Shown piece after piece: positions 2,029-61,824 of a DNA stretch of 64,000 nt. Under the pieces are notes generated by a model. The model saw only the letters and a list, made by a program, of their open reading frames with translations. It did not search any database and was not told where the DNA came from. This DNA comes from a phage. The translations under genes and the position numbers were made by a program. The DNA lies in the sequence record PZ445439.1; one strand, 5' to 3'. Position 1 is the stretch's first letter. Each line of letters begins with the position of its first letter.

Positions 2029-2046
2029 GGCCTGTTTCGGCAGGCC
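2029..2046 (+). other. GC-rich stem-loop with UUCG loop after gene 18 (no T-run; overlaps late promoter region)
   Basis: ggcctgt-ttcg-gcaggcc inverted repeat. Confidence 0.45.
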
Positions 2047-2620: not shown

Positions 2621-2626
2621 AATGAA

Positions 2627-2642
2627 TGGGGAGAAATCCCCA
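2627..2642 (+). other. Stem-loop with GAAA loop after gene 19
   Basis: tgggga-gaaa-tcccca. Confidence 0.4.
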
Positions 2643-2652
2643 TCCTGCTTAA

Positions 2653-8013: not shown

Positions 8014-8028
8014 TCTTTGACGATTTAA

Positions 8029-8050
8029 GGGACCTTCGGGTCCCTTTAGT
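8029..8050 (+). terminator. Rho-independent terminator after gene 23
   Basis: gggacc-ttcg-ggtccc stem-loop followed by T-rich tract. Confidence 0.8.
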
Positions 8051-8061
8051 TGTTTTTATGG

Positions 8062-8069
8062 TATAAATA
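8062..8069 (+). promoter_or_regulatory. Late promoter TATAAATA for gene 24
   Basis: Exact motif about 28 nt upstream of ATG. Confidence 0.7.
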
Positions 8070-9380: not shown

Positions 9381-9386
9381 AACAAA

Positions 9387-9408
9387 GGGACCTTTCGGTC
9401 CCTTTTTA
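9387..9408. terminator. Bidirectional terminator between gene 24 (+) and rnlB (-)
   Basis: gggacc-tttc-ggtccc stem-loop flanked by A-run and T-run. Confidence 0.75.
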
Positions 9409-10904: not shown

Positions 10905-10973
10905 GTTATCGAGTTGGTGCCATTATATACATCGTTTTCTGATTGTGTTTTGTGTGCTTTCAAAATGAAGAAA

Positions 10974-10987
10974 GGGGCCGAAGCCCC
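10974..10987 (-). terminator. Terminator after hoc (minus strand)
   Basis: ggggc-cgaa-gcccc stem-loop; on minus strand followed by TTTCTTCATTTT. Confidence 0.65.
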
Positions 10988-10992
10988 TACGA

Positions 10993-13151: not shown

Positions 13152-14663
13152 ATGACTGACATTAAAGTACATTTTTATGATTTTAGTCACGTGAGAATTG
13201 ATTGTGAAGAAAGTACATTTCATGAACTCCGTGATTTCTTTAGCTTTGAAGCTGATGGGTATCGTTTTAATCCGAAGTACAAATATGGTCACTGGGATGG
13301 ACGAATCCGTCTTTTAGATTATAATCGACTTCTTCCATTTGGATTAGTCGGGCAAATTAAAAAGTTCTGCGATAACTTTGGCTATAAAGCCTGGATTGAC
13401 CCACAAATTAACGAAAAGGAAGAACTGTCAAGAAAAGATTTTGATGAATGGCTTTCTAAATTAGAAATCTATTCAGGAAATAAAAGAATTGAACCGCATT
13501 GGTATCAAAAAGATGCAGTGTTCGAAGGATTAGTTAATCGTCGTAGAATTCTTAATCTTCCAACATCCGCAGGTAAATCTTTAATTCAGGCTTTGCTTGC
13601 TCGATATTATTTGGAAAATTATGAAGGTAAAATTCTTATCATTGTTCCAACAACTGCCTTAACAACTCAGATGGCTGATGACTTTGTTGACTATCGTTTA
13701 TTCAGTCATGCAATGATAAAGAAAATCGGTGGTGGAGCATCAAAAGATGATAAATATAAAAATGATGCACCAGTCGTTGTTGGTACATGGCAAACTGTAG
13801 TAAAACAACCGAAAGAATGGTTCTCGCAATTTGGTATGATGATGAATGATGAATGTCATCTTGCTACAGGAAAAAGTATTTCATCTATCATATCTGGTTT
13901 AAATAACTGTATGTTTAAATTTGGTTTGTCTGGTTCATTACGTGATGGCAAAGCCAATATCATGCAGTATGTTGGAATGTTTGGTGAAATATTTAAGCCA
14001 GTAACGACTTCTAAATTAATGGAAGATGGACAAGTAACTGAGCTAAAAATTAATAGTATTTTTCTTCGTTATCCTGATGAGTTCACTACTAAATTAAAGG
14101 GAAAAACTTACCAAGAAGAAATAAAAATTATTACTGGGCTCAGTAAAAGAAATAAATGGATCGCTAAATTAGCTATTAAGCTTGCGCAAAAAGATGAAAA
14201 CGCTTTTGTCATGTTTAAACATGTATCGCATGGTAAAGCTATTTTCGATTTAATTAAAAATGAATACGATAAAGTTTATTACGTATCAGGGGAAGTTGAT
14301 ACCGAAACACGCAATATAATGAAAACCTTAGCTGAAAACGGTAAAGGAATAATTATAGTAGCTAGTTATGGTGTATTTTCTACTGGTATTTCAGTTAAAA
14401 ATCTGCATCACGTTGTTTTAGCACATGGTGTTAAATCTAAAATTATCGTATTGCAAACAATAGGTCGCGTATTACGTAAGCATGGTTCTAAAACAATCGC
14501 AACAGTCTGGGATCTTATAGATGATTGTGGTGTTAAGCCAAAATCTGCTAATACTAAAAAGAAATATGTTCATTTGAACTATCTTTTAAAACACGGTATT
14601 GATCGCATTCAGCGTTATGCAGATGAAAAATTTAATTACGTAATGAAAACAGTTAATTTATAA
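13152..14663 (+). CDS. uvsW: UvsW RNA-DNA and DNA-DNA helicase (503 aa)
   Basis: ORF track; SF2 helicase motifs; T4 UvsW size; late promoter upstream. Confidence 0.92.
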   Translation: MTDIKVHFYDFSHVRIDCEESTFHELRDFFSFEADGYRFNPKYKYGHWDGRIRLLDYNRLLPFGLVGQIKKFCDNFGYKAWIDPQINEKEELSRKDFDEWLSKLEIYSGNKRIEPHWYQKDAVFEGLVNRRRILNLPTSAGKSLIQALLARYYLENYEGKILIIVPTTALTTQMADDFVDYRLFSHAMIKKIGGGASKDDKYKNDAPVVVGTWQTVVKQPKEWFSQFGMMMNDECHLATGKSISSIISGLNNCMFKFGLSGSLRDGKANIMQYVGMFGEIFKPVTTSKLMEDGQVTELKINSIFLRYPDEFTTKLKGKTYQEEIKIITGLSKRNKWIAKLAIKLAQKDENAFVMFKHVSHGKAIFDLIKNEYDKVYYVSGEVDTETRNIMKTLAENGKGIIIVASYGVFSTGISVKNLHHVVLAHGVKSKIIVLQTIGRVLRKHGSKTIATVWDLIDDCGVKPKSANTKKKYVHLNYLLKHGIDRIQRYADEKFNYVMKTVNL

Positions 14664-14676
14664 GGGCTTCGGCCCT
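14663..14676 (+). other. Short stem-loop with UUCG loop between uvsW and uvsW.1
   Basis: agggc-ttcg-gccct. Confidence 0.4.
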
Positions 14677-14688
14677 TTGGAGAAAAAG

Positions 14689-21130: not shown

Positions 21131-22225
21131 ATGGCAATTGTTAAAGAAATAACTACTGATTTAATTAAAAAGTCCGGTGAGAAAATTTCAGCCGGACAGA
21201 GCACTAAATCAGAAGTAGTAACTAAAACATACACAGCCCAGTTTCCAACTGGGCGTGCTAGTGGTAATGACACTACAGGGGACTTCCAGGTAACAGATCT
21301 ATATAAGAATGGATTATTATTTACTGCATACAATATGTCATCTAGGGATTCTGGAAGTCTTAGATCGATGAGATCTAACTACTCTTCTTCATCTTCGAGT
21401 ATTTTAAGTACAGCTAGAAACACTATTAGTAGTACAGTATCAAAACTATCAAATGGATTAATATCAAATAATAATTCAGGAACAATAAGTAAAGCTCCTG
21501 TCGCAAACATTCTTTTACCGAGATCTAAATCTGATGTTGATACATCATCACATAGATTTAATGATGTTCAAGAAAGTCTTATCAGCAGAGGCGGAGGTAC
21601 TGCTACTGGTGTGTTAAGTAATATTGCTTCAACTGCAGTATTTGGGGCACTGGAAAGTATAACGCAAGGTATAATGGCTGATAATAATGAACAGATTTAT
21701 ACGACAGCCAGAAGTATGTACGGCGGTGCTGAAAATAGAACTAAAGTGTTTACATGGGATTTGACTCCACGTTCCACAGAAGATTTAATGGCTATTATTA
21801 ATATCTATCAGTATTTTAACTATTTTTCTTATGGTGAAACAGGTAAATCTCAATATGCTGCTGAAATAAAGGGGTATTTAGATGATTGGTATCGTTCTAC
21901 GTTAATTGAACCTTTATCTCCGGAAGACGCAGCTAAAAATAAAACACTATTTGAGAAAATGACAGCAAGTTTAACGAACGTTCTTGTAGTTTCAAACCCG
22001 ACGATTTGGATGGTGAAAAACTTTGGTGCAACATCTAAGTTTGATGGAAAAACTGAAATATTTGGTCCATGCCAAATACAAAGTATCAGATTTGATAAAA
22101 CACCTAATGGTAACTTTAACGGATTAGCTATTGCTCCAAACCTCCCTAGTACATTTACTCTCGAGATTACTATGAGAGAAATTATCACGTTAAACCGTGC
22201 TTCTTTATATGCGGGGACTTTCTAA
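21131..22225 (+). CDS. 48: Baseplate-tail tube junction protein gp48 (364 aa)
   Basis: ORF track; size and synteny. Confidence 0.92.
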   Translation: MAIVKEITTDLIKKSGEKISAGQSTKSEVVTKTYTAQFPTGRASGNDTTGDFQVTDLYKNGLLFTAYNMSSRDSGSLRSMRSNYSSSSSSILSTARNTISSTVSKLSNGLISNNNSGTISKAPVANILLPRSKSDVDTSSHRFNDVQESLISRGGGTATGVLSNIASTAVFGALESITQGIMADNNEQIYTTARSMYGGAENRTKVFTWDLTPRSTEDLMAIINIYQYFNYFSYGETGKSQYAAEIKGYLDDWYRSTLIEPLSPEDAAKNKTLFEKMTASLTNVLVVSNPTIWMVKNFGATSKFDGKTEIFGPCQIQSIRFDKTPNGNFNGLAIAPNLPSTFTLEITMREIITLNRASLYAGTF

Positions 22226-23190: not shown

Positions 23191-23194
23191 CAAT

Positions 23195-23215
23195 GGGGAC
23201 CTTTCGGTCCCCATA
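23195..23215 (+). terminator. Rho-independent terminator after gene 54
   Basis: ggggacc-tttc-ggtcccc followed by atattttttt. Confidence 0.75.
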
Positions 23216-23533: not shown

Positions 23534-23572
23534 GTAAGACTACTATAACATAACACGAGGGACTTGTAAACT
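23534..23572 (-). promoter_or_regulatory. T4-type early promoter (-35 GTTTAC, -10 TATAGT) driving the alt.-3-position gene
   Basis: Minus strand GTTTACaagtccctcgtgttatgtTATAGT; matches T4 early promoter -35 consensus. Confidence 0.6.
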
Positions 23573-25628
23573 ACATTTTGAACTTTTTAGACATTCCGTT
23601 GATGTTAACCAAAGAAGCCAAGATTTGAGAAACTTCGTTTTCCTCTTCTTTTGATTCTTCTACAAGGAATTGATTAAATCCAGCCATTGGACGAACTTCA
23701 CCAGTTTCCATTAGATGGTCGCCATCATATACCGATTCCTCTAATTGTTCAGAAGGAGGAACGATTGTACCTTCTATTAGATACTTGTTATAAGCAGTTT
23801 CTTTCATAAAGTACGTACTTACTTTATTAATCTTTAGTAAAATTCCACGCGGTAGAATAACTTCAGCTTCTGATGGAAATCCTGATAAATGACCTGGAAC
23901 GATAACTTTGATTCGCTCAGCTCCTTTAATTACCATACCCACGCTAGTTTCAGCATCTTCATTAGCATATGTAGAATGACTACCCATATGCATCAAATCT
24001 TCTGCATCAACGGAACCTTCTCCTTCACCAGAAAATACTGCGCCGGAATCATCTAGAGCCATATAGTTTTTACCATGCTCACCGAAGATATTTGGTTTAA
24101 GCGATGTGGATACGAAGTTCTTGAAATAGAACATTTTGTTTTCAATGTTATGACGCAAAGTTTTAAAGGTAACTTCTTGTCCACGGTAAAGTGTAGTTCC
24201 TGGAGGAAGAACTGATCCTTTGGCAAAGGCAGAATCCAACGTCTCGATGTGCTTAATAGCTCGTTCCATATATTCTTCACGGGTAGAATCTGGTTTACCC
24301 AAAAGGAACGAGTTCATTTCAACATATGAATCTGCACAATACTCTTCAATTACATCAGACTCAGCCTGAGTTAATCCTTTTGGAGTTACTTCGGTGCTTG
24401 CGTATTCGTATGCCTGGGCAGCAGATTCATTAATCAATTTATAAATGCCATTCATTACAAATTGAACAATAGCTGTCTTTTCATCTGGTGTAGCTTTAGA
24501 ACCTTTAACTAAATCATTGACAATTTTCTTAATAACATCAAAGCTATTAGAAATATTAATGTCAGCAAGATCGCTTAAAATTTTATCAGTTTTATAATCA
24601 AAGAATTCTTTATTCTTTAAATATTCTTGAGAACCTTGATATGTTATATCGCTCTGCAACTTGATAGATGGATCACGTAAACGCGCATGAGCCAGTGCAA
24701 TATGATTTCGGAAACTTTCTAGTTCATAATCGTTAGATTTAAAACGAGAAGCACTCCTCATACCACCGATAGCTCCTTTGCTGAAGTTTGACCCAACTTG
24801 AATAACACCAGAGTTCATTGGTCCTTCTGCTTTATATACCGGAACTTTAGATTCAAATTCCTGATACTTCTTAGCAGCGAAGCTATCGCCCTGAAGTGAA
24901 GCATCGACAGTAGAATATTGAGCTTGTGCTGCTAATCGACGACTGATTTTAGTTTTCTGAATAACAGCTTGATCAGTACGTTTATCATTTTCTAAAGCAA
25001 TAGAAGCAGCAACTGCGACAGCTTTAGGAACCGCGTCTCCTGTTTTAACGTCTACATAAACATCACCGACCTTTGATTCAACTTTTGTGAATAGCTCTGT
25101 TGAAATAGGAGGTACACCTGGAATGTCTTCTAATTTAGCATTTTTACGGTAAACCATAATATATGCATACTTTTTATCATAGTCCCAAATTTCCTTTAAG
25201 AGAACATATCGACCTGCTCCTTTAGTACGTACTAAACGGTCAGCAATAACTTGCATTTGACGAGCTGCGCCATTTGTTTTACTTTTTAGTACGCGGAATA
25301 AGCATGCGTCGATTTTATACTGTTTCATTGTTTGAAGAGCAGTATCAAAAACAGCATTAATGACGCCAATTGGATTTCCACCCAAGTTTCTAAGCTTAAC
25401 CAGCGATAATTTCTCGTTGACACCTATCATTACGATATGCATCATTTTGTCGCCTGGCTTAACGTTTTTATTTGTATCACCGCCAGAGGTGTATGTACAA
25501 AATCTAAATCCAGGAAGCACGCTTTCTTCGCCGGCTTGAATAGCAAAAATTTGTGGTATTTTATGCTTAGGATTTAAGTTAACAACCGGCGCCGAAGCGC
25601 CGTCAAATAATTCTGTAATAAGTTCCAT
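23571..25628 (-). CDS. Alt-like ADP-ribosyltransferase paralogue (685 aa)
   Basis: N-terminal ~230 aa highly similar to Alt; C-terminal region retains R (LYRGQ), STS (VSTSL) and E-x-E (EAEVILP) motifs. Confidence 0.85.
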   Translation of the reverse strand: MELITELFDGASAPVVNLNPKHKIPQIFAIQAGEESVLPGFRFCTYTSGGDTNKNVKPGDKMMHIVMIGVNEKLSLVKLRNLGGNPIGVINAVFDTALQTMKQYKIDACLFRVLKSKTNGAARQMQVIADRLVRTKGAGRYVLLKEIWDYDKKYAYIMVYRKNAKLEDIPGVPPISTELFTKVESKVGDVYVDVKTGDAVPKAVAVAASIALENDKRTDQAVIQKTKISRRLAAQAQYSTVDASLQGDSFAAKKYQEFESKVPVYKAEGPMNSGVIQVGSNFSKGAIGGMRSASRFKSNDYELESFRNHIALAHARLRDPSIKLQSDITYQGSQEYLKNKEFFDYKTDKILSDLADINISNSFDVIKKIVNDLVKGSKATPDEKTAIVQFVMNGIYKLINESAAQAYEYASTEVTPKGLTQAESDVIEEYCADSYVEMNSFLLGKPDSTREEYMERAIKHIETLDSAFAKGSVLPPGTTLYRGQEVTFKTLRHNIENKMFYFKNFVSTSLKPNIFGEHGKNYMALDDSGAVFSGEGEGSVDAEDLMHMGSHSTYANEDAETSVGMVIKGAERIKVIVPGHLSGFPSEAEVILPRGILLKINKVSTYFMKETAYNKYLIEGTIVPPSEQLEESVYDGDHLMETGEVRPMAGFNQFLVEESKEEENEVSQILASLVNINGMSKKFKM

Positions 25629-25631
25629 GAT

Positions 25632-27725
25632 TTATCCTTGAACGAACTTGTAAGGCATGTTTGTAATATCTATGCAAGACGCAATAATTCCAAGAGATGA
25701 TTCTACTTTCTGTTTAACGTTTGATGAAACAAATGATGCAAAGTCAACTCTGTCTTCTATTTCAATATCACCTGTCATTGCAACCAATTCACCAGTTTCC
25801 ATTAAATGGTCTCCATCATAGATTACCGATTCGGTGAGCTCTTCCGTGGTCATAACTTCAGCTTGAATGAGTTTTGTATTATTAGATGTTGTTCCGTCAT
25901 TATTAGAAGCATCAGTTATTTTATTAACTTTGACCATCAATCCACGCGGTAGAATAACTTCAGCTTCTGTTGCTATTCCGAGACTTCCTGGATATACAAC
26001 ATTAACTTTATGAGCTCCATCAATTGCCCATCCTATTTGAACTTTAACGTATTCAGGATTTTCTTTATACGCTCTTATTTCGTTTGGATTAATAGTTATT
26101 CCTTCTTCATTTTTATCAACTGTTAATTCATTGCGAGCTTCTGGTTCTAAAAGACCAATACCAGCATGTGTAATTCCAAAACGTCCAAAAATGATAGGAG
26201 TTAAAGAAGTAGATACAAAATTTCTGAAGTAGAACACTTTATTTTTAACTAGTGCTTCGTATATAGGAGCAGTCATACTTTGAGCACGATAAACTGTAAT
26301 GCCTTCCGGTATGCGGTCACCATTTTCAAAAGCTGAATCTAAATTATTTATAGCAGATTCAATTTCTTTTTCACTCATTACATCATATCGTTCTGGATTG
26401 TAACGACCTAAAAGAAGATTATTGATGTCAGTATATCCTGAACCACAATACTCTCTAATGCCGCGCTTTTGTGATGGAGTATATTTAGAACCATCACGGG
26501 CAATAGTAATATCAATCATTGGACCTGCACCAATTCCAGAAAAACTATAAATCATTCTTTTGAGGAATTTAGTTTTTGCTGCGTTCCAGGAATTTTTAGT
26601 CATTTCTTCCCAGACTTCATCTGGCTGCCCTTTACGAGTTTTATTATGTTTATCAAGCCAATTATCTTTATATTCTTCAAAGAGTTGATTAACAGCTGCT
26701 GCGTATTTCTCTAAACATTTTATTGAAGTAGTTGGTTCATTTTTAATCGCATTAAGAATTACATCTTTAATTTTTTCAGAAACTTCATTAACCTCACTTT
26801 TTGAAAAGAATTTATAGTCATAATGAAGTTCATCTGCGGTTCCTTCGGCAATAATTTTTGCTGCCTTAGTTTTAGAAGCTAATGAATTAATTCCAAGTTT
26901 CATTTCTTCTGCTTCGGGAATTAAAGGAGCGGTAGCAGGTTTATTGAAATTAGCTGCGGTAGATTCATATTTCTGGAATAATTCACTTTCAAATCTAGAA
27001 GATTCCAATGACTGACTTTGTGCAATTGCTCTACGGGAAATTTTAACTTTAACGATTACAGCTTGGTCAGAACGTTTATCATTTTCTTGTGCAATAGATG
27101 CAGCAATTGCCTCATTTTTAGTTACTTGAGCTCCAGTATCTTTATTGATATAAACATCACCGACCTTCGATTCAACTTTAGTAAAGAGCTCGGTGCTAAT
27201 TTCCGGAACTCCTGGAATGTCTTCTAGTGATACATTTTTGCGATGTATAAGAATATATGCATACTTTTTATCGTAATCCCAGAGTTCCTTAAGAAGGACG
27301 TATCTGCCACCTGAACGACTGCGGATAAGTCTATCAGCAATAAGTTGAATTTGACGAGCTTGACCAGCAGTTTTAGACTTAAGAATACGGAGCATACAGG
27401 CATCAATTTTATACTGACGCATCGTCTGCATCGCAACAGTAAAAACTGAATTGATGTAATTAATTGGGCTTGGACCGAGACCTTTTAATTTAGCAATTGA
27501 ACCTTTAGCAGTTAATGTAAAAGGAACAATATGCATCATTTTATCGCCCATCTTTAAATCGCGATTAGTATCACCTCCAGATGTATAGGTACATAAACGA
27601 AAGCCTGGTTGTTCAATTGCGTCATCAACATGAACTGAAAAAATTTGTGGTATTTTCTTCTTTGGATTTAAGTTTGTAATCGGAAGAGTAGTATCTTCGT
27701 CAAATAATTCTGTAATGAGTTCCAT
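25632..27725 (-). CDS. alt: Alt, capsid-packaged ADP-ribosyltransferase (about 697 aa from second ATG)
   Basis: N-terminus MELITELFDEDTTLPITNL matches recalled T4 Alt; R-STS-ExE motifs present; late promoter upstream. Confidence 0.92.
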   Translation of the reverse strand: MELITELFDEDTTLPITNLNPKKKIPQIFSVHVDDAIEQPGFRLCTYTSGGDTNRDLKMGDKMMHIVPFTLTAKGSIAKLKGLGPSPINYINSVFTVAMQTMRQYKIDACMLRILKSKTAGQARQIQLIADRLIRSRSGGRYVLLKELWDYDKKYAYILIHRKNVSLEDIPGVPEISTELFTKVESKVGDVYINKDTGAQVTKNEAIAASIAQENDKRSDQAVIVKVKISRRAIAQSQSLESSRFESELFQKYESTAANFNKPATAPLIPEAEEMKLGINSLASKTKAAKIIAEGTADELHYDYKFFSKSEVNEVSEKIKDVILNAIKNEPTTSIKCLEKYAAAVNQLFEEYKDNWLDKHNKTRKGQPDEVWEEMTKNSWNAAKTKFLKRMIYSFSGIGAGPMIDITIARDGSKYTPSQKRGIREYCGSGYTDINNLLLGRYNPERYDVMSEKEIESAINNLDSAFENGDRIPEGITVYRAQSMTAPIYEALVKNKVFYFRNFVSTSLTPIIFGRFGITHAGIGLLEPEARNELTVDKNEEGITINPNEIRAYKENPEYVKVQIGWAIDGAHKVNVVYPGSLGIATEAEVILPRGLMVKVNKITDASNNDGTTSNNTKLIQAEVMTTEELTESVIYDGDHLMETGELVAMTGDIEIEDRVDFASFVSSNVKQKVESSLGIIASCIDITNMPYKFVQG

Positions 27726-27748
27726 CATATCCTCTCTAGTGTTTATTC

Positions 27749-27756: not shown

Positions 27757-27761
27757 AAATT

Positions 27762-27779
27762 AAAGGCCCGAAGGCCTTT
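27762..27779 (-). terminator. Terminator after the gene 30 transcription unit (minus strand)
   Basis: aaaggcc-cgaa-ggccttt stem-loop; minus strand followed by AATTTTAT. Confidence 0.65.
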
Positions 27780-27966
27780 AATAATCTATTGGTAAGAGAG
27801 TACGATATATTTCAAACTTTGGACCTTTTTCATAGGCATCAAATGTTTCTGTGAATTTATTATAAGCATATGCATCTATAAATTCAATCATAATTTGTGA
27901 TACAGAAGTAGAAACATCTCCACCTTCTTTTTGAGCAACGACAATTGTTTCTAAGTAAGCTTTCAT
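27778..27966 (-). CDS. Hypothetical 62-aa protein between DNA ligase and alt
   Basis: ORF track; ATG overlaps gene 30 stop (ATGA); terminator hairpin at its 3-prime end. Confidence 0.55.
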   Translation of the reverse strand: MKAYLETIVVAQKEGGDVSTSVSQIMIEFIDAYAYNKFTETFDAYEKGPKFEIYRTLLPIDY

Positions 27967-31672: not shown

Positions 31673-31714
31673 AATATTTTCCTCAGTAAGGGGCCGAAGC
31701 CCCTCATTTTATTT

Positions 31715-32537: not shown

Positions 32538-32567
32538 AACTTTGTGCAATCTTTGGAAAATAAAAAA

Positions 32568-32585
32568 GGACTCCCGAAGGAGTCC
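32568..32585 (-). terminator. Rho-independent terminator after the small basic-protein gene (minus strand)
   Basis: ggactcc-cgaa-ggagtcc; minus strand followed by TTTTTTATTTT. Confidence 0.75.
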
Positions 32586-32590
32586 TCAAC

Positions 32591-40746: not shown

Positions 40747-40754
40747 AATAAAAT

Positions 40755-40768
40755 GGGCCTTGCGGCCC
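40755..40768 (-). terminator. Stem-loop/terminator between nrdB and denA (minus strand)
   Basis: gggcc-ttgc-ggccc; minus strand followed by ATTTTATT. Confidence 0.55.
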
Positions 40769-40773
40769 ACTCC

Positions 40774-41276
40774 TTAAAAATATTTTTTAAAACTCATCAT
40801 AACTTTATCATCAACATCATTATCAATCTGTGCAACAAGATAAGATGACAGTTCTACTTCTTGTGGCGCGGATTGAACATTATCAGAATTAAGATATTCA
40901 CGAATCCAAGGATATGGGTGTTTAACCGGAGCATCGGTAATTGGGCATGGAAGACCACACTGTTTCATACGAGATACAGTTAAGTAATCAATAAAGCTCC
41001 ACATGTTATTTGTATTTAATCCAGGAACATCGCCATCTTTAAATAAATGAACTGCCCAATCTTTTTCTTGGCGGTTAACTTCCATGAAAATATCAACTGC
41101 TTCTTGTTCACACTCTTGAGCAATTTTAACCCATTCATCGCCATCAGTGCCAAGTTGAAGTTGACGAATAATATATTGAGTGCCTTTAAGGTGAAGCTGT
41201 TCATCACGTGCAATGAACTTCATAATCTTGGCATTGCCTTCCATGATTTCCATATTCTTGTGGAAGTTAAAGGTAC
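40774..41276 (-). CDS. nrdB: Ribonucleotide reductase small subunit NrdB, exon 2
   Basis: C-terminal half aligns to class Ia R2 (E. coli NrdB ...[23 protein letters not shown]...); junction codon TGT (Cys) is formed across the splice. Confidence 0.85.
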
Positions 41277-42367
41277 CGTTATGTTCGATTGAGCTCGCTA
41301 ATTCTCAACCCGTTCTCTTATGAACTGCTACATATTACTATGCAGACCAGACTATATCACAATCCCAGAGGGATTCTCCCCATTTCGAGTCGCTTGACCC
41401 TACGTCCGAAGACTAGTCGTTGAACCTTGCTTTGCAATTGTCGCCGTGCCATCGTTTATATGTTGATGGTGATAAATCTTTCTTATCACAATATGGACAA
41501 TTCAATTGAATTCTATTTGGATTTAATTTACATCTGTCATTATGTTTTAGATAAAATCCAGGACCTTTACCAATGTGACCACAAAAATCACATGTGATTT
41601 CTTTTTGTGCAGGATGGGTCCCGTTCTTAACCATTTCTAATGTTTTTGCTGATGTTCTTTTCTTATGGTCTTCTGATAAGAAATGATGTGAACCGTCATT
41701 TACCCGTTTTGATTGAGTTTCTGACTGCATTTTACCACCGCAAAATACATGAGTACCTTCTTTTATAGCTGCAATATTGCGTTCTTTAACTTTTGCAATA
41801 TGCTCAGCTTGTTGAAAATTATGTATACCTAATGCAACTCTATTTAAATTAGATTTACGCTGTATTTCACCGTCTAAAAGATGAAATGTACCATTTTCTA
41901 TCTTAGATTTAATAGAGGCAATATTTTTAGCTCGTACTTCAGGGATATTAAAAATCTGGATTTCTCTAGATTTTGCGGCTTTAGAAGCTAATTCAGAAAT
42001 TTCTTCAGGAGAATATTTCATTCTAAGCTTTATAGCATGACAAGCCTGGTAATCTTTTTGAGCTAAATGTATATCATAATGTTCCTGTATAGAAAGGCAC
42101 ATCAAATTATCTAAATCATTATTTTCACGGTTACCGTCTTTATGATGGATTTCGTATGTTCTTCCATCAGAATCTTTAGGTATAGGTCCGTTAGCATCTA
42201 TCCAAATTTTTCTATAGTTCAATTGTGCATCCTCTTAAAAGTATAATCATATTTATATTATACTAATTAAAGGTGCAAGCAAAACCTTGGCTGCTAGTTT
42301 TCCTATAAAGGACTTTCCAGCAATTAAAGGAGTTTTCGATAAACGTTACCGTTTAAAGGCGCATTTT
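41277..42367 (-). mobile_element. Group I self-splicing intron in nrdB (about 1091 nt) carrying an intact HNH homing endonuclease ORF
   Basis: nrdB reading frame interrupted by in-frame TAA after ...YVSFA; exon ends in U, intron ends in G; spliced frame restores conserved YVSFAC; internal 269-codon ORF. Confidence 0.85.
41413..42222 (-). CDS. Intron-encoded HNH homing endonuclease (I-TevIII-like, 269 aa; apparent non-ATG start)
   Basis: N-terminal HNH motif (EIHHKDGNRENNDLDNL) and C-terminal Cys clusters; 269 aa as recalled for full-length I-TevIII of phage RB3. Confidence 0.85.
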   Translation of the reverse strand: MNYRKIWIDANGPIPKDSDGRTYEIHHKDGNRENNDLDNLMCLSIQEHYDIHLAQKDYQACHAIKLRMKYSPEEISELASKAAKSREIQIFNIPEVRAKNIASIKSKIENGTFHLLDGEIQRKSNLNRVALGIHNFQQAEHIAKVKERNIAAIKEGTHVFCGGKMQSETQSKRVNDGSHHFLSEDHKKRTSAKTLEMVKNGTHPAQKEITCDFCGHIGKGPGFYLKHNDRCKLNPNRIQLNCPYCDKKDLSPSTYKRWHGDNCKARFND

Positions 42368-43043
42368 ACGCAAAAGATACATAAAAACGAATTGCTTCTA
42401 AGGCATTAATAACGTGCAAACAGAGGTAAAGAGATTTCATTAGCTCACGCTTCCAATATGTCTCATGCTCAATAGCATCTTCAATAACGTCTTCGTCTGC
42501 ATTAATTTCTTTTTGGTATTCGATATCAGCTTTAGCGTTTTCCCAATAACGAGCTTTAACCAGAACATCATCATAATATCGTCCGATAGATTCGGCACGC
42601 TTCATAATAGCTTCATCTAATACAATCTCATCAAACACCTTCGATGGATCGGTATAAAGATTTCGCATAATATGAGTGTACGAACGAGAGTGAATAGTTT
42701 CACTGAATGTCCATGTTGCAACCCACGTATCTAATGAAGGGTCGGAAATCAGTGCCATAAGTACCGCAGATGGGGCCCTGCCTTGGATAGAATCTAATAA
42801 TGATTGATACTTAAGATTGTTTGTAAAGATGTCCTGTTGGAACTGAGGAAGCTTATTGAACTGCGCAGAGTCCAACATCAAGTTTACCTCTTCTGGGCGC
42901 CAGAAAAATGACAATTGCTTTTCAATAAGTTCTTCAAAAACTTTATGTCGCTGAATATCATAACGTGCGAGGCCAAGACCAGAACCAAAGAACATTGGTT
43001 CATTCAAAACATCGACTTGTTGTGTGTTAAAAACTGTACTCAT
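42368..43043 (-). CDS. nrdB: Ribonucleotide reductase small subunit NrdB, exon 1
   Basis: N-terminal half; ends ...LEAIRFYVSFA, which aligns with E. coli NrdB immediately before the intron. Confidence 0.85.
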
Positions 43044-45697: not shown

Positions 45698-46558
45698 TTA
45701 TACCGCCATTTTAGCTTTGATAGCTGGATGAGATTCGTAATTTTTAAGAACGAAATCAGAATGTGTCATCGTTCCAGTAACCCAGTCCATTTGGATTTTT
45801 GTAGGCCAATTCTCAAAATTACTAGGCCAATTAATTTCAAGAGAACATAACTCTTTAGGTTCACGACGAAGAACTTCTTTGCATTGTTCTACATGATTGC
45901 TGTAGATATGCGTGTTGCCGCCTGAGAACACTAAATCACCTGGGATAAGGTTACACATCTTCGCTACAATATGCGTCAAGGCAGCGTACGAGGCAATGTT
46001 GAATGGCAGGCCCAAGAAAACATCTACACTGCGTTGATACCATTGTAAATCAAGATGCCCATTACGCACATTAAATTGATAGAACATATGACAAGGAGGA
46101 AGAGCCATTTGGTCAATTTCTGCAGGGTTCCATGCAGAAACTATTTGACGACGATCATTAGGAAGAGCTTTAATACGGTCGATAGTTTTGACCAATTGGT
46201 CTACACCACCAAAATCACGCCATTGCTTACCATAAATAGGACCAAGTTCGCCGCTATGATATCCAAGGTCTTTTGCCTGATTTTCATAGTTGTCGTCCCA
46301 AATAGTTTTACCTTGAATAAGACTACCATGAGTACGAATACGCAAATCATTAACATTGGTAGAACCAGACATGAACCACAGTAACTCGGCAATACAAGCT
46401 TTCCATGCTAATTTCTTAGTTGTTACTGCAGGGAATCCTTTAGTCAGATCCCAACGTAATTTAGTTCCGAACAGGGCAATAGTGCCGGTGCCTGTACGGT
46501 CGTCTGTTTCGTAGCCATTTTCTAGGATATCATTAATCAGGTATTGGTATTGTTTCAT
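45698..46558 (-). CDS. td: Thymidylate synthase, uninterrupted (286 aa)
   Basis: ORF track; continuous 286-aa ORF the same length as spliced T4 Td; no intron. Confidence 0.95.
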   Translation of the reverse strand: MKQYQYLINDILENGYETDDRTGTGTIALFGTKLRWDLTKGFPAVTTKKLAWKACIAELLWFMSGSTNVNDLRIRTHGSLIQGKTIWDDNYENQAKDLGYHSGELGPIYGKQWRDFGGVDQLVKTIDRIKALPNDRRQIVSAWNPAEIDQMALPPCHMFYQFNVRNGHLDLQWYQRSVDVFLGLPFNIASYAALTHIVAKMCNLIPGDLVFSGGNTHIYSNHVEQCKEVLRREPKELCSLEINWPSNFENWPTKIQMDWVTGTMTHSDFVLKNYESHPAIKAKMAV

Positions 46559-48178: not shown

Positions 48179-48196
48179 GGGAGACCGAAGTCTCCC
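48179..48196 (-). terminator. Rho-independent terminator after gene 32 (minus strand)
   Basis: gggagac-cgaa-gtctccc; minus strand followed by TTTTGAGTATC. Confidence 0.75.
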
Positions 48197-49223: not shown

Positions 49224-49877
49224 TTAATACTTACATGATTTGATTGTTTCTATGAACAATTTCTTAGCAACATTTCCATCGATTTGAAGTATTTTTCGAT
49301 ATGCCTTTAATTTGGTAGAATAATTTTGCCAGACTAAGTTATCGGTGAGTTCGTCGTGCTTATCTATAATATTCAAAAACGAGTCCAACAATAAGAAAGT
49401 CTCAAATGAAATTATATTGCTTTGTAACAATTTAAATATGTAGCTCGACTGAACTTTATTATTATAATCAAATATCTCTTGAAGCGCACTAACTTCCACT
49501 TTCTTACTGAAATAGTAGATGTTACGTACGTCTTCAGCAAACGTCTCTTTAGCTTGTTTGAGACGTCCAATATATTCCCTATAGAAAACTAATGCATCAG
49601 CGTCTGATATCTCACCAATCCATGCGTCTTGGTTAGCAACTAAGTTGCTTATGAATATCAAGGTGAGTTCCTTCAATTTATATTTCTCTGCTAGTTTTTC
49701 AAAGAAATATTTATCTCGGCGTTTTTGATACGCATTATCCGAAACACGCATGCGCCAGTTATATTTGATTACGTCATACCGACCACCAAAGTGGTTTTTG
49801 CACATCAAGTATAGTTTATATACTGATTTACCGTTAATATAACGTTCTCCGTCAGGAGGCATGCGTATTTTAATCAT
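49224..49877 (-). CDS. 59: gp59 helicase loader (217 aa)
   Basis: ORF track; highly similar to recalled T4 gp59. Confidence 0.93.
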   Translation of the reverse strand: MIKIRMPPDGERYINGKSVYKLYLMCKNHFGGRYDVIKYNWRMRVSDNAYQKRRDKYFFEKLAEKYKLKELTLIFISNLVANQDAWIGEISDADALVFYREYIGRLKQAKETFAEDVRNIYYFSKKVEVSALQEIFDYNNKVQSSYIFKLLQSNIISFETFLLLDSFLNIIDKHDELTDNLVWQNYSTKLKAYRKILQIDGNVAKKLFIETIKSCKY

Positions 49878-50553
49878 AGTTCCATCCAGGCCATTTTGAA
49901 GATTTAAGTCTATACGTAACTAGAGATGCAGAAATATTAAAAACATCCGAAACTTCTGTGCATGATGAGTATTTTATACCATCAATAATTATAGGTTTTT
50001 GTTTTTTAATAGTTCTTTCTTTAGAATGCGGCTTTGAATTTGCTATTCTAAGAGCTTCTTTGGTTGAATCAGGCATCGGCTTATTCGTTTTTCGCCCTTT
50101 TCGGACTTTACTCAAAGCTAATTTATGAGCTTCAGATAGTTTCTTACCCTTATTAGGGGATGGTATTTTTCTTTCTAATCTGGTTTTAGATACTTTAGCC
50201 TTAGTCTCTTCAGATCTAGGTTTCCCTATTTTAGAAAGTGAAATAGCCCTTTTAGCTTCATCACTTTGTTTTTTACCAGGGCCACCTTTACCACCTGGAA
50301 CCAGGTTATAAGTATCAGTTCGCAAAACAAAATCTTCATTAACCAATTCTGCTTCTTTTTTATAGGCGTCCTTGTCATTATCATATTCATAAAGAACTTC
50401 AGTATAAAAATTTTTTAGCCCGTATTTAGCTTTGGCCGCTAATATAGCGCGACCAGACCCAATATACCAATCTTTCTCTTTATGTTTTTTGTGTACGCCT
50501 ATATAAATTTTACCATTTATTTTATTGGTAGTTTTATACACAACGTATTTCAT
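49870..50553 (-). CDS. GIY-YIG homing endonuclease, Seg-type (227 aa)
   Basis: N-terminal GIY-YIG module (YVVYKTTNKINGKIYIGV); Lys-rich linker with repeated S-x-x-x-K-x-A-x-S-like (NUMOD3-type) motifs; overlaps genes 59 and 33 by a few nt. Confidence 0.8.
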   Translation of the reverse strand: MKYVVYKTTNKINGKIYIGVHKKHKEKDWYIGSGRAILAAKAKYGLKNFYTEVLYEYDNDKDAYKKEAELVNEDFVLRTDTYNLVPGGKGGPGKKQSDEAKRAISLSKIGKPRSEETKAKVSKTRLERKIPSPNKGKKLSEAHKLALSKVRKGRKTNKPMPDSTKEALRIANSKPHSKERTIKKQKPIIIDGIKYSSCTEVSDVFNISASLVTYRLKSSKWPGWNYD

Positions 50554-57163: not shown

Positions 57164-57168
57164 ATTGA

Positions 57169-57190
57169 GGGAGCCTTCGGGTTCCCTTTT
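57169..57190 (+). terminator. Rho-independent terminator after gene 35
   Basis: gggagcc-ttcg-ggttccc with one G-U pair, followed by tttttcttt. Confidence 0.7.
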
Positions 57191-57194
57191 TCTT

Positions 57195-57202
57195 TATAAA
57201 TA
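57195..57202 (+). promoter_or_regulatory. Late promoter TATAAATA for gene 36
   Basis: Exact motif about 24 nt upstream of ATG. Confidence 0.7.
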
Positions 57203-61806: not shown

Positions 61807-61824
61807 AGAGGGCTTCGTCCCTCT
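61807..61824 (+). other. Stem-loop after gene 37 (weak terminator candidate)
   Basis: agaggg-cttcgt-ccctct; T-run begins 5 nt downstream. Confidence 0.4.

Follow-up and report, generated by a model that had tools for sequence, protein, structure and literature searches.

The stretch of phage DNA analysed here (PZ445439.1, 64,000 nucleotides; hereafter the window) is, by its gene content, a segment of a Tequatrovirus (T4-like) genome running from gene 18 to gene 38, t and asiA. The genes, which we assigned by synteny with phage phiD1 and T4 together with a list of open reading frames, begin in the order 18, 19, 20, 67, 68, 21, 22, 23, 24, rnlB, hoc, inh, uvsW, uvsY, 25-29, 48 and 54. Two alt paralogues, gene 30 to 30.9, rIII, 31, cd, pseT, alc, rnlA, denA, nrdB and nrdA come next, and td, frd, 32, 59, 33, rnh, 34-38, t and asiA complete the segment. 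More than 1000 T4-like phage records match the region around the hairpin that follows gene 23, the best being Escherichia phage JoYop (97.2% over 3 kb), and over a stretch of 25 kb the identity to Yersinia phage phiD1, RB3 and further members of the genus is 94-95%. At 94-97% identity to other Tequatrovirus genomes, the window belongs to a relative of T4 and not to T4 itself.

Distributed over this segment are 15 GC-rich hairpins with four-base loops, 11 of them capped by UUCG and four by a GNRA loop on the transcribed strand. The original prediction that a family of near-identical hairpins of this kind recurs across the window is well founded, as their number is far above chance. The exact motif GGGACC-N4-GGTCCC, whose search had been proposed as a check, occurs three times (8029, 9387 and 23196) compared with 0.00 occurrences in 100 shuffles, and allowing two mismatches yielded no further sites in the window. 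Under a strict rule of at least five Watson-Crick pairs, at least four G-C pairs and a 4-nt loop, the window has 13 hairpins, whereas 200 dinucleotide shuffles gave 2.5 +/- 1.6; for those with a UUCG or CGAA loop, the corresponding figures are 8 observed and 0.02 expected. Three more UUCG hairpins fall outside the rule on account of a G.U pair (gene 35), a U.G loop closure (gene 18) and a C/U mismatch (gene 37). Other loop sizes showed no excess over background after the shadows of the tetraloop hairpins were discounted. Predicted folding energies range from -11 to -20 kcal/mol, and the main hairpins have z scores between -3 and -5. A scan of the whole window against Rfam at gathering thresholds gave no match, and no family fits the hairpin sites.

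The hairpin downstream of gene 23 (8027..8046, plus strand) is of terminator type and reads AAGGGACC-UUCG-GGUCCCUU, then UAGUUGUUUUU. Its core at 8029-8044, GGGACC-TTCG-GGTCCC, lies 16 nt past the gene 23 stop codon; the hairpin is predicted to fold at -20.3 kcal/mol (z -4.5), and the gene 24 late promoter TATAAATA is found at 8062. The same six-pair stem recurs in two putative two-way terminators between convergent genes. One, between gene 24 (plus) and rnlB (minus) at 9384..9405, has the form AAAGGGACC-UUUC/GAAA-GGUCCCUUU with U-rich tails on both strands (core 9387-9402) and carries a terminator annotation on both strands in MT682709; the other, between gene 54 (plus) and alt.-3 (minus) at 23193..23214, is AUGGGGACC-UUUC/GAAA-GGUCCCCAU (core 23196-23211). 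In each the loop is TTTC on the plus strand and GAAA on the minus strand. Both are perfect palindromes with an A-tract on one side and a T-tract on the other, and both strands of each are predicted to fold, at -16.8 to -18.4 kcal/mol. A T-tract follows each palindrome in either direction, which is what a two-way terminator should have, and records of relatives annotate the two sites on both strands. The terminator-type hairpin after gene 35 (57167..57188, plus) reads GAGGGAGCC-UUCG-GGUUCCCUU, with the 3' arm GGTTCCCTT in DNA, then UUUUCUUUAU; the gene 36 late promoter TATAAATA follows at 57195. Its stem, GGGAGCC/GGUUCCC, includes one G.U pair and differs from the GGGACC stem. The form GGGACC-UUCG-GGUCCC, which together with close variants had been proposed for the sites after genes 23, 24, 54 and 35, is therefore present in full only after gene 23; genes 24 and 54 share the stem but not the loop, and gene 35 has another stem.

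Five further sites on the minus strand had been expected to carry similar GC stems with CGAA or UUCG loops, and four of them carry UUCG. The terminator-type hairpin after hoc (10973..10988), AGGGGC-UUCG-GCCCCU, is followed by UUCUUCAUUUU. At the end of the gene 30 unit, a hairpin spanning the alt.1 stop codon (27759..27782) reads AUUAAAGGCC-UUCG-GGCCUUUAAU, with the alt late promoter TATAAATA (27756-27749) directly after it. The terminator-type hairpin 3' of 30.9 (32567..32586) is AGGACUCC-UUCG-GGAGUCCU, then UUUUUUAUUUU, with an early-promoter-like site, AAAGTTGTTTACA-N17-TAGTAT, about 30 nt downstream; its counterpart 3' of gene 32 (48179..48196) is GGGAGAC-UUCG-GUCUCCC, then UUUUGAG and an early-promoter-like site AAAGTTGTTTACT-N16-TAGTAT. 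The fifth, also of terminator type and located 3' of nrdB (40754..40769), has a GNRA loop instead, reading UGGGCC-GCAA-GGCCCA, then UUUUAUUAUG, and is identical in T4.

The set also extends to six hairpins that had not been listed before, after genes 18, 19, uvsW, 30.7 and 37 and within an alt-like open reading frame. That after gene 18 (2029..2046, plus) is GGCCUG-U(UUCG)G-CAGGCC, with the late-promoter motif TATAAATA starting at 2048. The one after gene 19 (2626..2643, plus), AUGGGGA-GAAA-UCCCCAU, is identical in T4 and has a GNRA loop on the sense strand; its U-rich tail lies on the antisense strand only, and TATAAATA is found at 2668. Three are intercistronic: AAGGGC-UUCG-GCCCUU spans the uvsW stop codon (14662..14677, plus; a weak fold, z -1.2), with a GGAG Shine-Dalgarno sequence and the start of uvsW.1 after it; AGGGGC-UUCG-GCCCCU lies between 30.7 and 30.6 (31689..31704, minus), again ahead of a Shine-Dalgarno sequence, and has a UUCA loop in T4; and AGAGGG-C(UUCG)U-CCCUCU, between genes 37 and 38 (61807..61824, plus), precedes the Shine-Dalgarno sequence and start of gene 38. 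The last, CGGCGC-UUCG-GCGCCG (25587..25602, minus), occupies codons 9-14 of the alt-like frame (23571-25628) and is conserved in T4 alt.-1, although its membership of the set is uncertain.

Relative to the flanking genes, each of the 11 UUCG loops is on the sense strand (one-sided binomial p = 0.0005), which points to selection on RNA rather than on DNA. The loop is closed by a C-G pair in 9 of these 11, the exceptions being gene 18 (U.G) and gene 37 (C/U mismatch). GAAA is the GNRA loop at gene 19 and on the minus strands of the two convergent-gene hairpins, and GCAA that at nrdB. About 10 of the 15 hairpins have at least five U in the next 9 nt and stand 3-30 nt past a stop codon, a count that takes in genes 23, 24/rnlB, hoc, 54/alt.-3, alt.1, 30.9, nrdB, 32 and 35, with the two-way hairpins counted on both strands. 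From this position and the U-rich tail, these hairpins look like intrinsic terminators. The U-tract is interrupted after gene 23 (UUUAGUUGUUUUU) and short after alt.1 and gene 32, which may make termination at these sites partial. Five or six hairpins, those after genes 18, 19, uvsW, 30.7 and 37 and the one in the alt-like frame, have no U-tract on their sense strand and cannot be classical terminators; they stand just before a Shine-Dalgarno sequence or a promoter or, in one case, in the first 14 codons of the alt-like frame. The late-promoter motif follows five hairpins (genes 18, 19, 23, alt.1 and 35) at a distance of 2-25 nt, and the early-promoter-like sites after 30.9 and gene 32, recognised by consensus only, are near-identical (AAAGTTGTTTAC(A/T)-N16-17-TAGTAT). 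With stop codons upstream and promoter motifs or a convergent gene downstream, the hairpins sit at transcription-unit boundaries.

The positions of these hairpins are conserved to a far greater extent than their sequences. T4-like loci were taken from IMG/VR with gp23, gp54 and gp32 as queries. Gene 23 is followed by a GC hairpin and a T-rich tail in all of about 50 loci, which span 70-99% gp23 identity. The stems, each fully complementary, include GGGACC, GGGAGAC, GGGAGCC, GGGAACC, GGAGCC, GGGGAC, GGGAGAGC and others; the loops are mainly UUCG, with GCAA, GAAA and UACG also represented. In the most distant relatives the hairpin is kept at this site with loops of no special kind (AUUU, GUUU, AAU). 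Retention of the hairpin with a varied sequence is likewise seen after genes 32, 54 and 24, the loops after gene 32 being UUCG, UCCG, UACG and CUAGA, and every T4-like phage examined has an equivalent hairpin at the orthologous position. When 20 distinct gene 23 hairpins were aligned on the loop, 95.6% of the cells pair and seven of nine pairs change on both sides, figures that are partly a matter of construction because the relatives' hairpins after genes 23, 32 and 54 were chosen as the best hairpin downstream; free of this selection bias are the constant presence of a hairpin and the differing stem sequences. In all 20 the loop is closed by the same C-G pair, without exception. Several of the same sites carry the label "terminator" in relatives' GenBank records, an annotation that is itself based on sequence. 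T4 has GGGAACC-UUCG after gene 23, GGGACC-UUUC after 24, GGGGACC-GAAA-GGUCC after 54 and GGGGACC-CUAGA after 32; since the stems after 23, 24 and 54 differ there, the triple GGGACC identity of the window is not even common to T4.

A separate observation concerns the loops of the two convergent-gene hairpins. Among close relatives, the loop at the gene 54 and gene 24 sites may be replaced by its exact reverse complement while the stem and flanks remain identical. At the gene 54 site, GAAA (loci L080, L082 and L083, and T4) alternates with UUUC (the window, L081, L085 and phiD1), and other pairs are AUA and UAU, UUAC and GUAA, UUA and UAA, and AUAC and GUAU; at the gene 24 site the pairs are UUUC and GAAA, GGGA and UCCC, and UUAC and GUAA. 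Exact-pattern scans of IMG/VR for the two-way hairpins returned 3-4 contigs, too few for a count of loop orientations, and we therefore turned to BLAST of the phage collection with two 90-nt queries that differ only in the loop. Of about 486 Tequatrovirus records searched, 258 match at 95% identity or more with the UUUC loop and 216 with the flipped GAAA loop, roughly half each, and single records switch by about 4.4% identity between the two queries, which corresponds to the four loop bases. In the relatives' loci, CGAA never appears as the sense-strand loop of the one-way hairpins after gene 23 and gene 32, so that inversions there are either absent or removed by selection. There is a small chance that inversion at the two-way sites would switch the stable GNRA cap between a late structural and an early transcript and so would slightly retune read-through or mRNA half-life between lineages.

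Taken together, these results make it very probable that the hairpins are RNA-level punctuation of the T4-type transcription map, serving to terminate and stabilise transcripts, and that the likeness of their stems comes from convergent selection. Each member combines a stem of 6-10 pairs, with a G-rich 5' arm and a C-rich 3' arm, and a thermodynamically special tetraloop, either cUUCGg or GNRA (GAAA, GCAA). Such a cap would allow a very short stem to fold fast and tightly in the nascent RNA. The members with a U-rich tail, about 10 of 15, would act as factor-independent terminators for the host RNA polymerase, and after release of the transcript the hairpin would be expected to shield the 3' end of the mRNA from 3'-to-5' exonucleases. 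Hairpins between convergent genes would work for both strands; UUCG cannot occupy both strands at once, which would explain why UUUC/GAAA is found there. The members that lack a U-tract, between genes of one operon and in the alt-like frame, are probably barriers to folding or decay, or insulators beside a ribosome-binding site or a late promoter. Classical transcript mapping has placed 3' ends after T4 genes 23 and 32, and our literature search for genome-wide 3'-end or terminator maps of T4 or T4-type phages returned nothing usable. The reading as terminators and elements of mRNA stability, already part of the original prediction, agrees with the anatomy and conservation of the sites as judged from sequence.

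Likeness among the stems would, on this explanation, arise from convergent selection within a small sequence space: an A-tract, GG(G), a purine, any base, C(C), the tetraloop, the complement and a T-tract. The original prediction had instead taken the stems to be more alike than terminator function alone requires, and had suggested as the cause either a shared origin or one factor that binds or processes them all. One half of the premise stands, as the hairpins are more uniform than terminator-like hairpins of E. coli. Tetraloops cap 13 of 20 hairpins in the window and 18 of 64 (one of them UUCG) in 200 kb of E. coli K-12, and the 5' arms consist of 52% G and 25% C in the former but of 37% G and 44% C in the latter. 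The E. coli sample is a crude baseline, obtained by a pattern scan that includes chance matches rather than from mapped terminators. The other half is not supported: there is no excess of likeness within genomes. In a permutation test with about 160 terminator-like hairpins from 17 clade representatives, identical GC cores made up 1.8% of comparisons within genomes and 1.5% between them (p = 0.32), and mean edit distance was 3.39 within and 3.38 between (p = 0.62). Both gene conversion and a genome-specific partner are made less likely by this lack of homogenisation. Among 131 loop-proximal 6-mers from other clades the commonest are GGAGCC (12%), GGAACC (8%), AGGGCC (6%) and GGGACC (5%), and when 12 hairpins were drawn from this pool, at least three identical 6-mers appeared in 31% of trials (p = 0.31); the window has three identical among 12. 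Uniformity of the stems is common to T4-like phages, and we infer that its best explanation is selection, in a compact and AT-rich genome, for the shortest hairpin with the greatest stability, rather than by common descent of copies or a sequence-specific partner. Concerted evolution and a genome-specific factor, which we also considered as candidates, were rejected on the permutation and draw tests.

A shared origin, in which a single element was multiplied by duplication or moved about as regulatory cassettes recombined, is unlikely but has a documented precedent. PeSLs are repeated cassettes in which a terminator stem-loop with a G-run/C-run stem lies directly upstream of a sigma-70-type early promoter and a Shine-Dalgarno sequence; they share about 100 bp of conserved sequence and flank variable open reading frames in hyperplastic regions (Arbiol et al. 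2010, PMC2839356; Comeau et al. 2014, PMC4122927). Judged by consensus only, this layout seems to be present at the hairpins after 30.9 and gene 32. The near-identity of the early-promoter-like sequences there speaks for such copying, as does a 14-bp arm, AAAAATGGGAACTC, that occurs three times in one other genome. However, the PeSL layout is absent at the GGGACC trio and the gene 35 hairpin, where late promoters or a convergent gene are found, and conservation over about 100 bp between copies is likewise not seen in the window: only the 12-nt AAAGTTGTTTAC is common to two sites. Outside the stems, neither the trio nor the full set has anything in common except that the 5' flank is A-rich and the 3' flank T-rich. 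The trio adjoins late structural genes of the conserved core and not hyperplastic regions, every site is orthologous across T4-like phages with a stem history of its own, and the permutation test indicates that copies at different sites do not group by genome. A duplicated or mobile element of the REP or MITE kind was rejected on similar grounds, namely unrelated flanks and the lack of homogenisation within genomes.

There is a small chance that the narrow set of stems reflects something more than thermodynamic economy, such as tuning to phage-controlled decay or to the phage-modified RNA polymerase (for example, ADP-ribosylated, or bound by gp55, gp33 or Alc). It is very unlikely that a common sequence-specific factor, whether a phage or host protein or an RNase, reads the GGGACC-type stem or its loop. 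In favour of such a factor, the repertoire of stems is narrow and differs from that of host terminator-like hairpins in base composition and in the share of tetraloops, but the orthologous stems drift with compensatory changes, so that no stem base is fixed except the loop-closing C-G pair, and the hairpin persists in distant relatives whose loops are not special. In addition, the cUUCGg loop is bound by no proteins and makes no RNA-RNA contacts, according to a review (PMC4371310), and Rfam holds no family for the sites. A protein-binding RNA operator hairpin was considered separately and rejected, as stems, and in distant relatives loops as well, vary freely while pairing is kept.

We regard as highly improbable the view that the sites are DNA-level palindromes acting as cruciforms, recombination hot spots or replication signals. 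They are perfect inverted repeats of 6-10 bp, and repeated inversion of the loops at the two convergent-gene sites in the course of evolution implies that these palindromes are active in recombination or replication. A function in DNA would nevertheless predict no strand bias, against the sense orientation of every UUCG loop; the G.U pair at gene 35 and the U.G closure at gene 18 can pair only in RNA of that strand, and the hairpins occur in association with stop codons and U-tracts. Chance in an AT-rich genome might account for one or two members, such as a five-pair GGAGG-TAAC-CCTCC hairpin in gene 34 (55884) and perhaps the one at 25587, but for the whole set its probability is negligible and it is refuted by the shuffle controls, the intergenic placement and the conservation in relatives.

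With RNA-level punctuation as the preferred reading, the hairpins and the promoter motifs that follow them would mark transcription-unit boundaries and be useful for the annotation of T4-type genomes. They form a compact collection of natural one-way and two-way terminators, as they are best read, and the comparative set is a clean case of a structure kept through compensated changes in its stem. The loop-inversion polymorphism offers a possible means of studying how template-switch mutations arise when phages replicate.

Our findings are best appreciated against systems that are already known. The hairpins resemble the intrinsic terminators of E. coli and its phages in combining a GC hairpin with a U-tract, in presumably acting on the host RNA polymerase and, at the two-way sites, in having an A-tract upstream. 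Compared with the terminator-like hairpins of the 200-kb E. coli sample, whose loops vary in size and whose 5' arms are C-rich (GCCCGC, for example), those of the phage are shorter, more uniform, mostly tetraloop and G-rich in the 5' arm. The hairpins at 9384-9405 and 23193-23214 are like bidirectional terminators between convergent genes, the sole difference being the loop-inversion polymorphism. Inversion of a hairpin loop by template switching during replication is a described class of mutation (Monttinen and Loytynoja 2022, PMC8794818), and chloroplast DNA is well known for small inversions in hairpins (PMC2903610); here, as there, the loop is replaced by its reverse complement and a perfect stem is kept. 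What differs is the setting, in phage terminators, and the near half-and-half distribution across about 486 genomes. No report of loop inversion in T4-like phages was found in the literature searched, and since the class of inversion is already described, we view this as a new instance of a known process and not a new process.

The closest comparison is with T4 itself. UUCG and GAAA loops are reportedly over-represented in terminators, as d'Aubenton-Carafa and colleagues are said to have found in 1990. The extraordinarily stable UUCG tetraloop was discovered in T4 mRNA (PMC4371310), and the intergenic regions of T4 are described as especially abundant in CUUCGG hairpins, in a statement of PMC8948821 that cites Tuerk et al. 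1988. As papers that cite it describe them, the C(UUCG)G hairpins of the latter report (PNAS 85:1364) have the same loop and the same closing pair as those in the window and, like them, are found on the sense strand in intergenic or intercistronic positions. We take the two to be the same hairpins, first described in T4 in 1988, so that the finding is already known. Likewise, the classic NMR model GGAC(UUCG)GUCC, cited from Cheong, Varani and Tinoco 1990, is nearly the core of the hairpin at 8029. The feature is therefore known and ordinary for T4-type phages, and it carries small weight as a discovery, because the T4 hairpin family is where the cUUCGg tetraloop was first recognised. Between the hairpins of T4 mRNA and those described here there is no substantive difference, with some stems in the window differing by compensated changes.

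We found that the two-way hairpins between convergent genes, at 9384-9405 (gene 24/rnlB) and 23193-23214 (gene 54/alt.-3), have counterparts in close relatives in which the tetraloop is replaced by its exact reverse complement while the stems and flanks are identical (T4-like IMG/VR loci L080-L103 and L004-L056). The loop pairs seen at such terminators are UUUC/GAAA, AUA/UAU, UUAC/GUAA, UUA/UAA, AUAC/GUAU and GGGA/UCCC, and the orientations divide roughly half and half among about 486 Tequatrovirus records; at the gene 54 site, T2 and the window have UUUC, and T4 has GAAA. The flip is consistent with a template switch or with inversion mediated by the inverted repeat. Among the relatives' loci compared at the one-way terminators after genes 23 and 32, flipped CGAA was found on the sense strand in zero cases.

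The terminator-like hairpins of the window and of other T4-like clades share a style, with G-rich 5' arms (GGRNCC) and mainly tetraloops, whereas an identical scan of 200 kb of E. coli K-12 (loci L184-L187), a crude baseline that does not consist of mapped terminators, returned 5' arms rich in C (the GCCCGC type) and loops of mixed size. Beyond five hairpins of the window, the late-promoter motif TATAAATA starts at a distance of only 2-25 nt, at 2048 (gene 18), 2668 (gene 19), 8062 (gene 23), 27756-27749 on the minus strand (alt.1) and 57195 (gene 35). Thus, these sites form compact junctions in which a hairpin is followed by a late promoter. Near-identical early-promoter-like sites, AAAGTTGTTTAC...TAGTAT, lie downstream of the two hairpins that follow 30.9 and gene 32.

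In another T4-like genome, contig IMGVR_UViG_2974770551 (L026 and L098), the 14-nt hairpin arm AAAAATGGGAACTC occurs unchanged in three separate places, where the loops are GUUU, AAAU and GUUU. This is a real within-genome repeat, possibly a cassette of the promoter-early stem-loop (PeSL) type, and the window has no arm repeat comparable to it.

Two minus-strand hairpins lie inside coding sequence. The 5' part of gene 48 contains GCCCAGTT-GGA-AACTGGGC (21236-21254, 8 pairs), also present in two close relatives and followed on the antisense strand by UGUGUAUGUU; an antisense terminator is one possible reading, a chance occurrence the other. The other, CGGCGC-UUCG-GCGCCG (25587-25602), closes a UUCG loop with six all-GC pairs within codons 9-14 of the alt-like ORF at 23571-25628, has no U-tract, and is kept in T4 alt.-1 (T4 123409-123424).

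Several genes of the window can be compared with their arrangement in T4. The minus-strand nrdB (40774-43043) is split by an intron holding a full-length HNH endonuclease ORF (269 aa, 41413-42222), whereas I-TevIII of T4 is truncated; unlike in T4, td (45698-46558, minus strand) lacks an intron and is one unbroken 286-aa ORF. Rfam at gathering thresholds reported zero families across the whole window, group I intron included. T4 carries segG between genes 32 and 59, but the window instead has an extra minus-strand ORF between 59 and 33 (49870-50553, 227 aa), whose product carries an I-TevI-type DNA-binding domain, matches GIY-YIG/NUMOD3 weakly and so looks like a Seg-like homing endonuclease. 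Finally, the window contains two tandem full-length paralogues of the ADP-ribosyltransferase gene alt (23571-25628 and 25632-27728, minus strand), in contrast to T4, which has a single alt and the truncated remnants alt.-1 and alt.-2, and the Yersinia phage phiD1, a Tequatrovirus relative, likewise has two tandem full-length alt paralogues.
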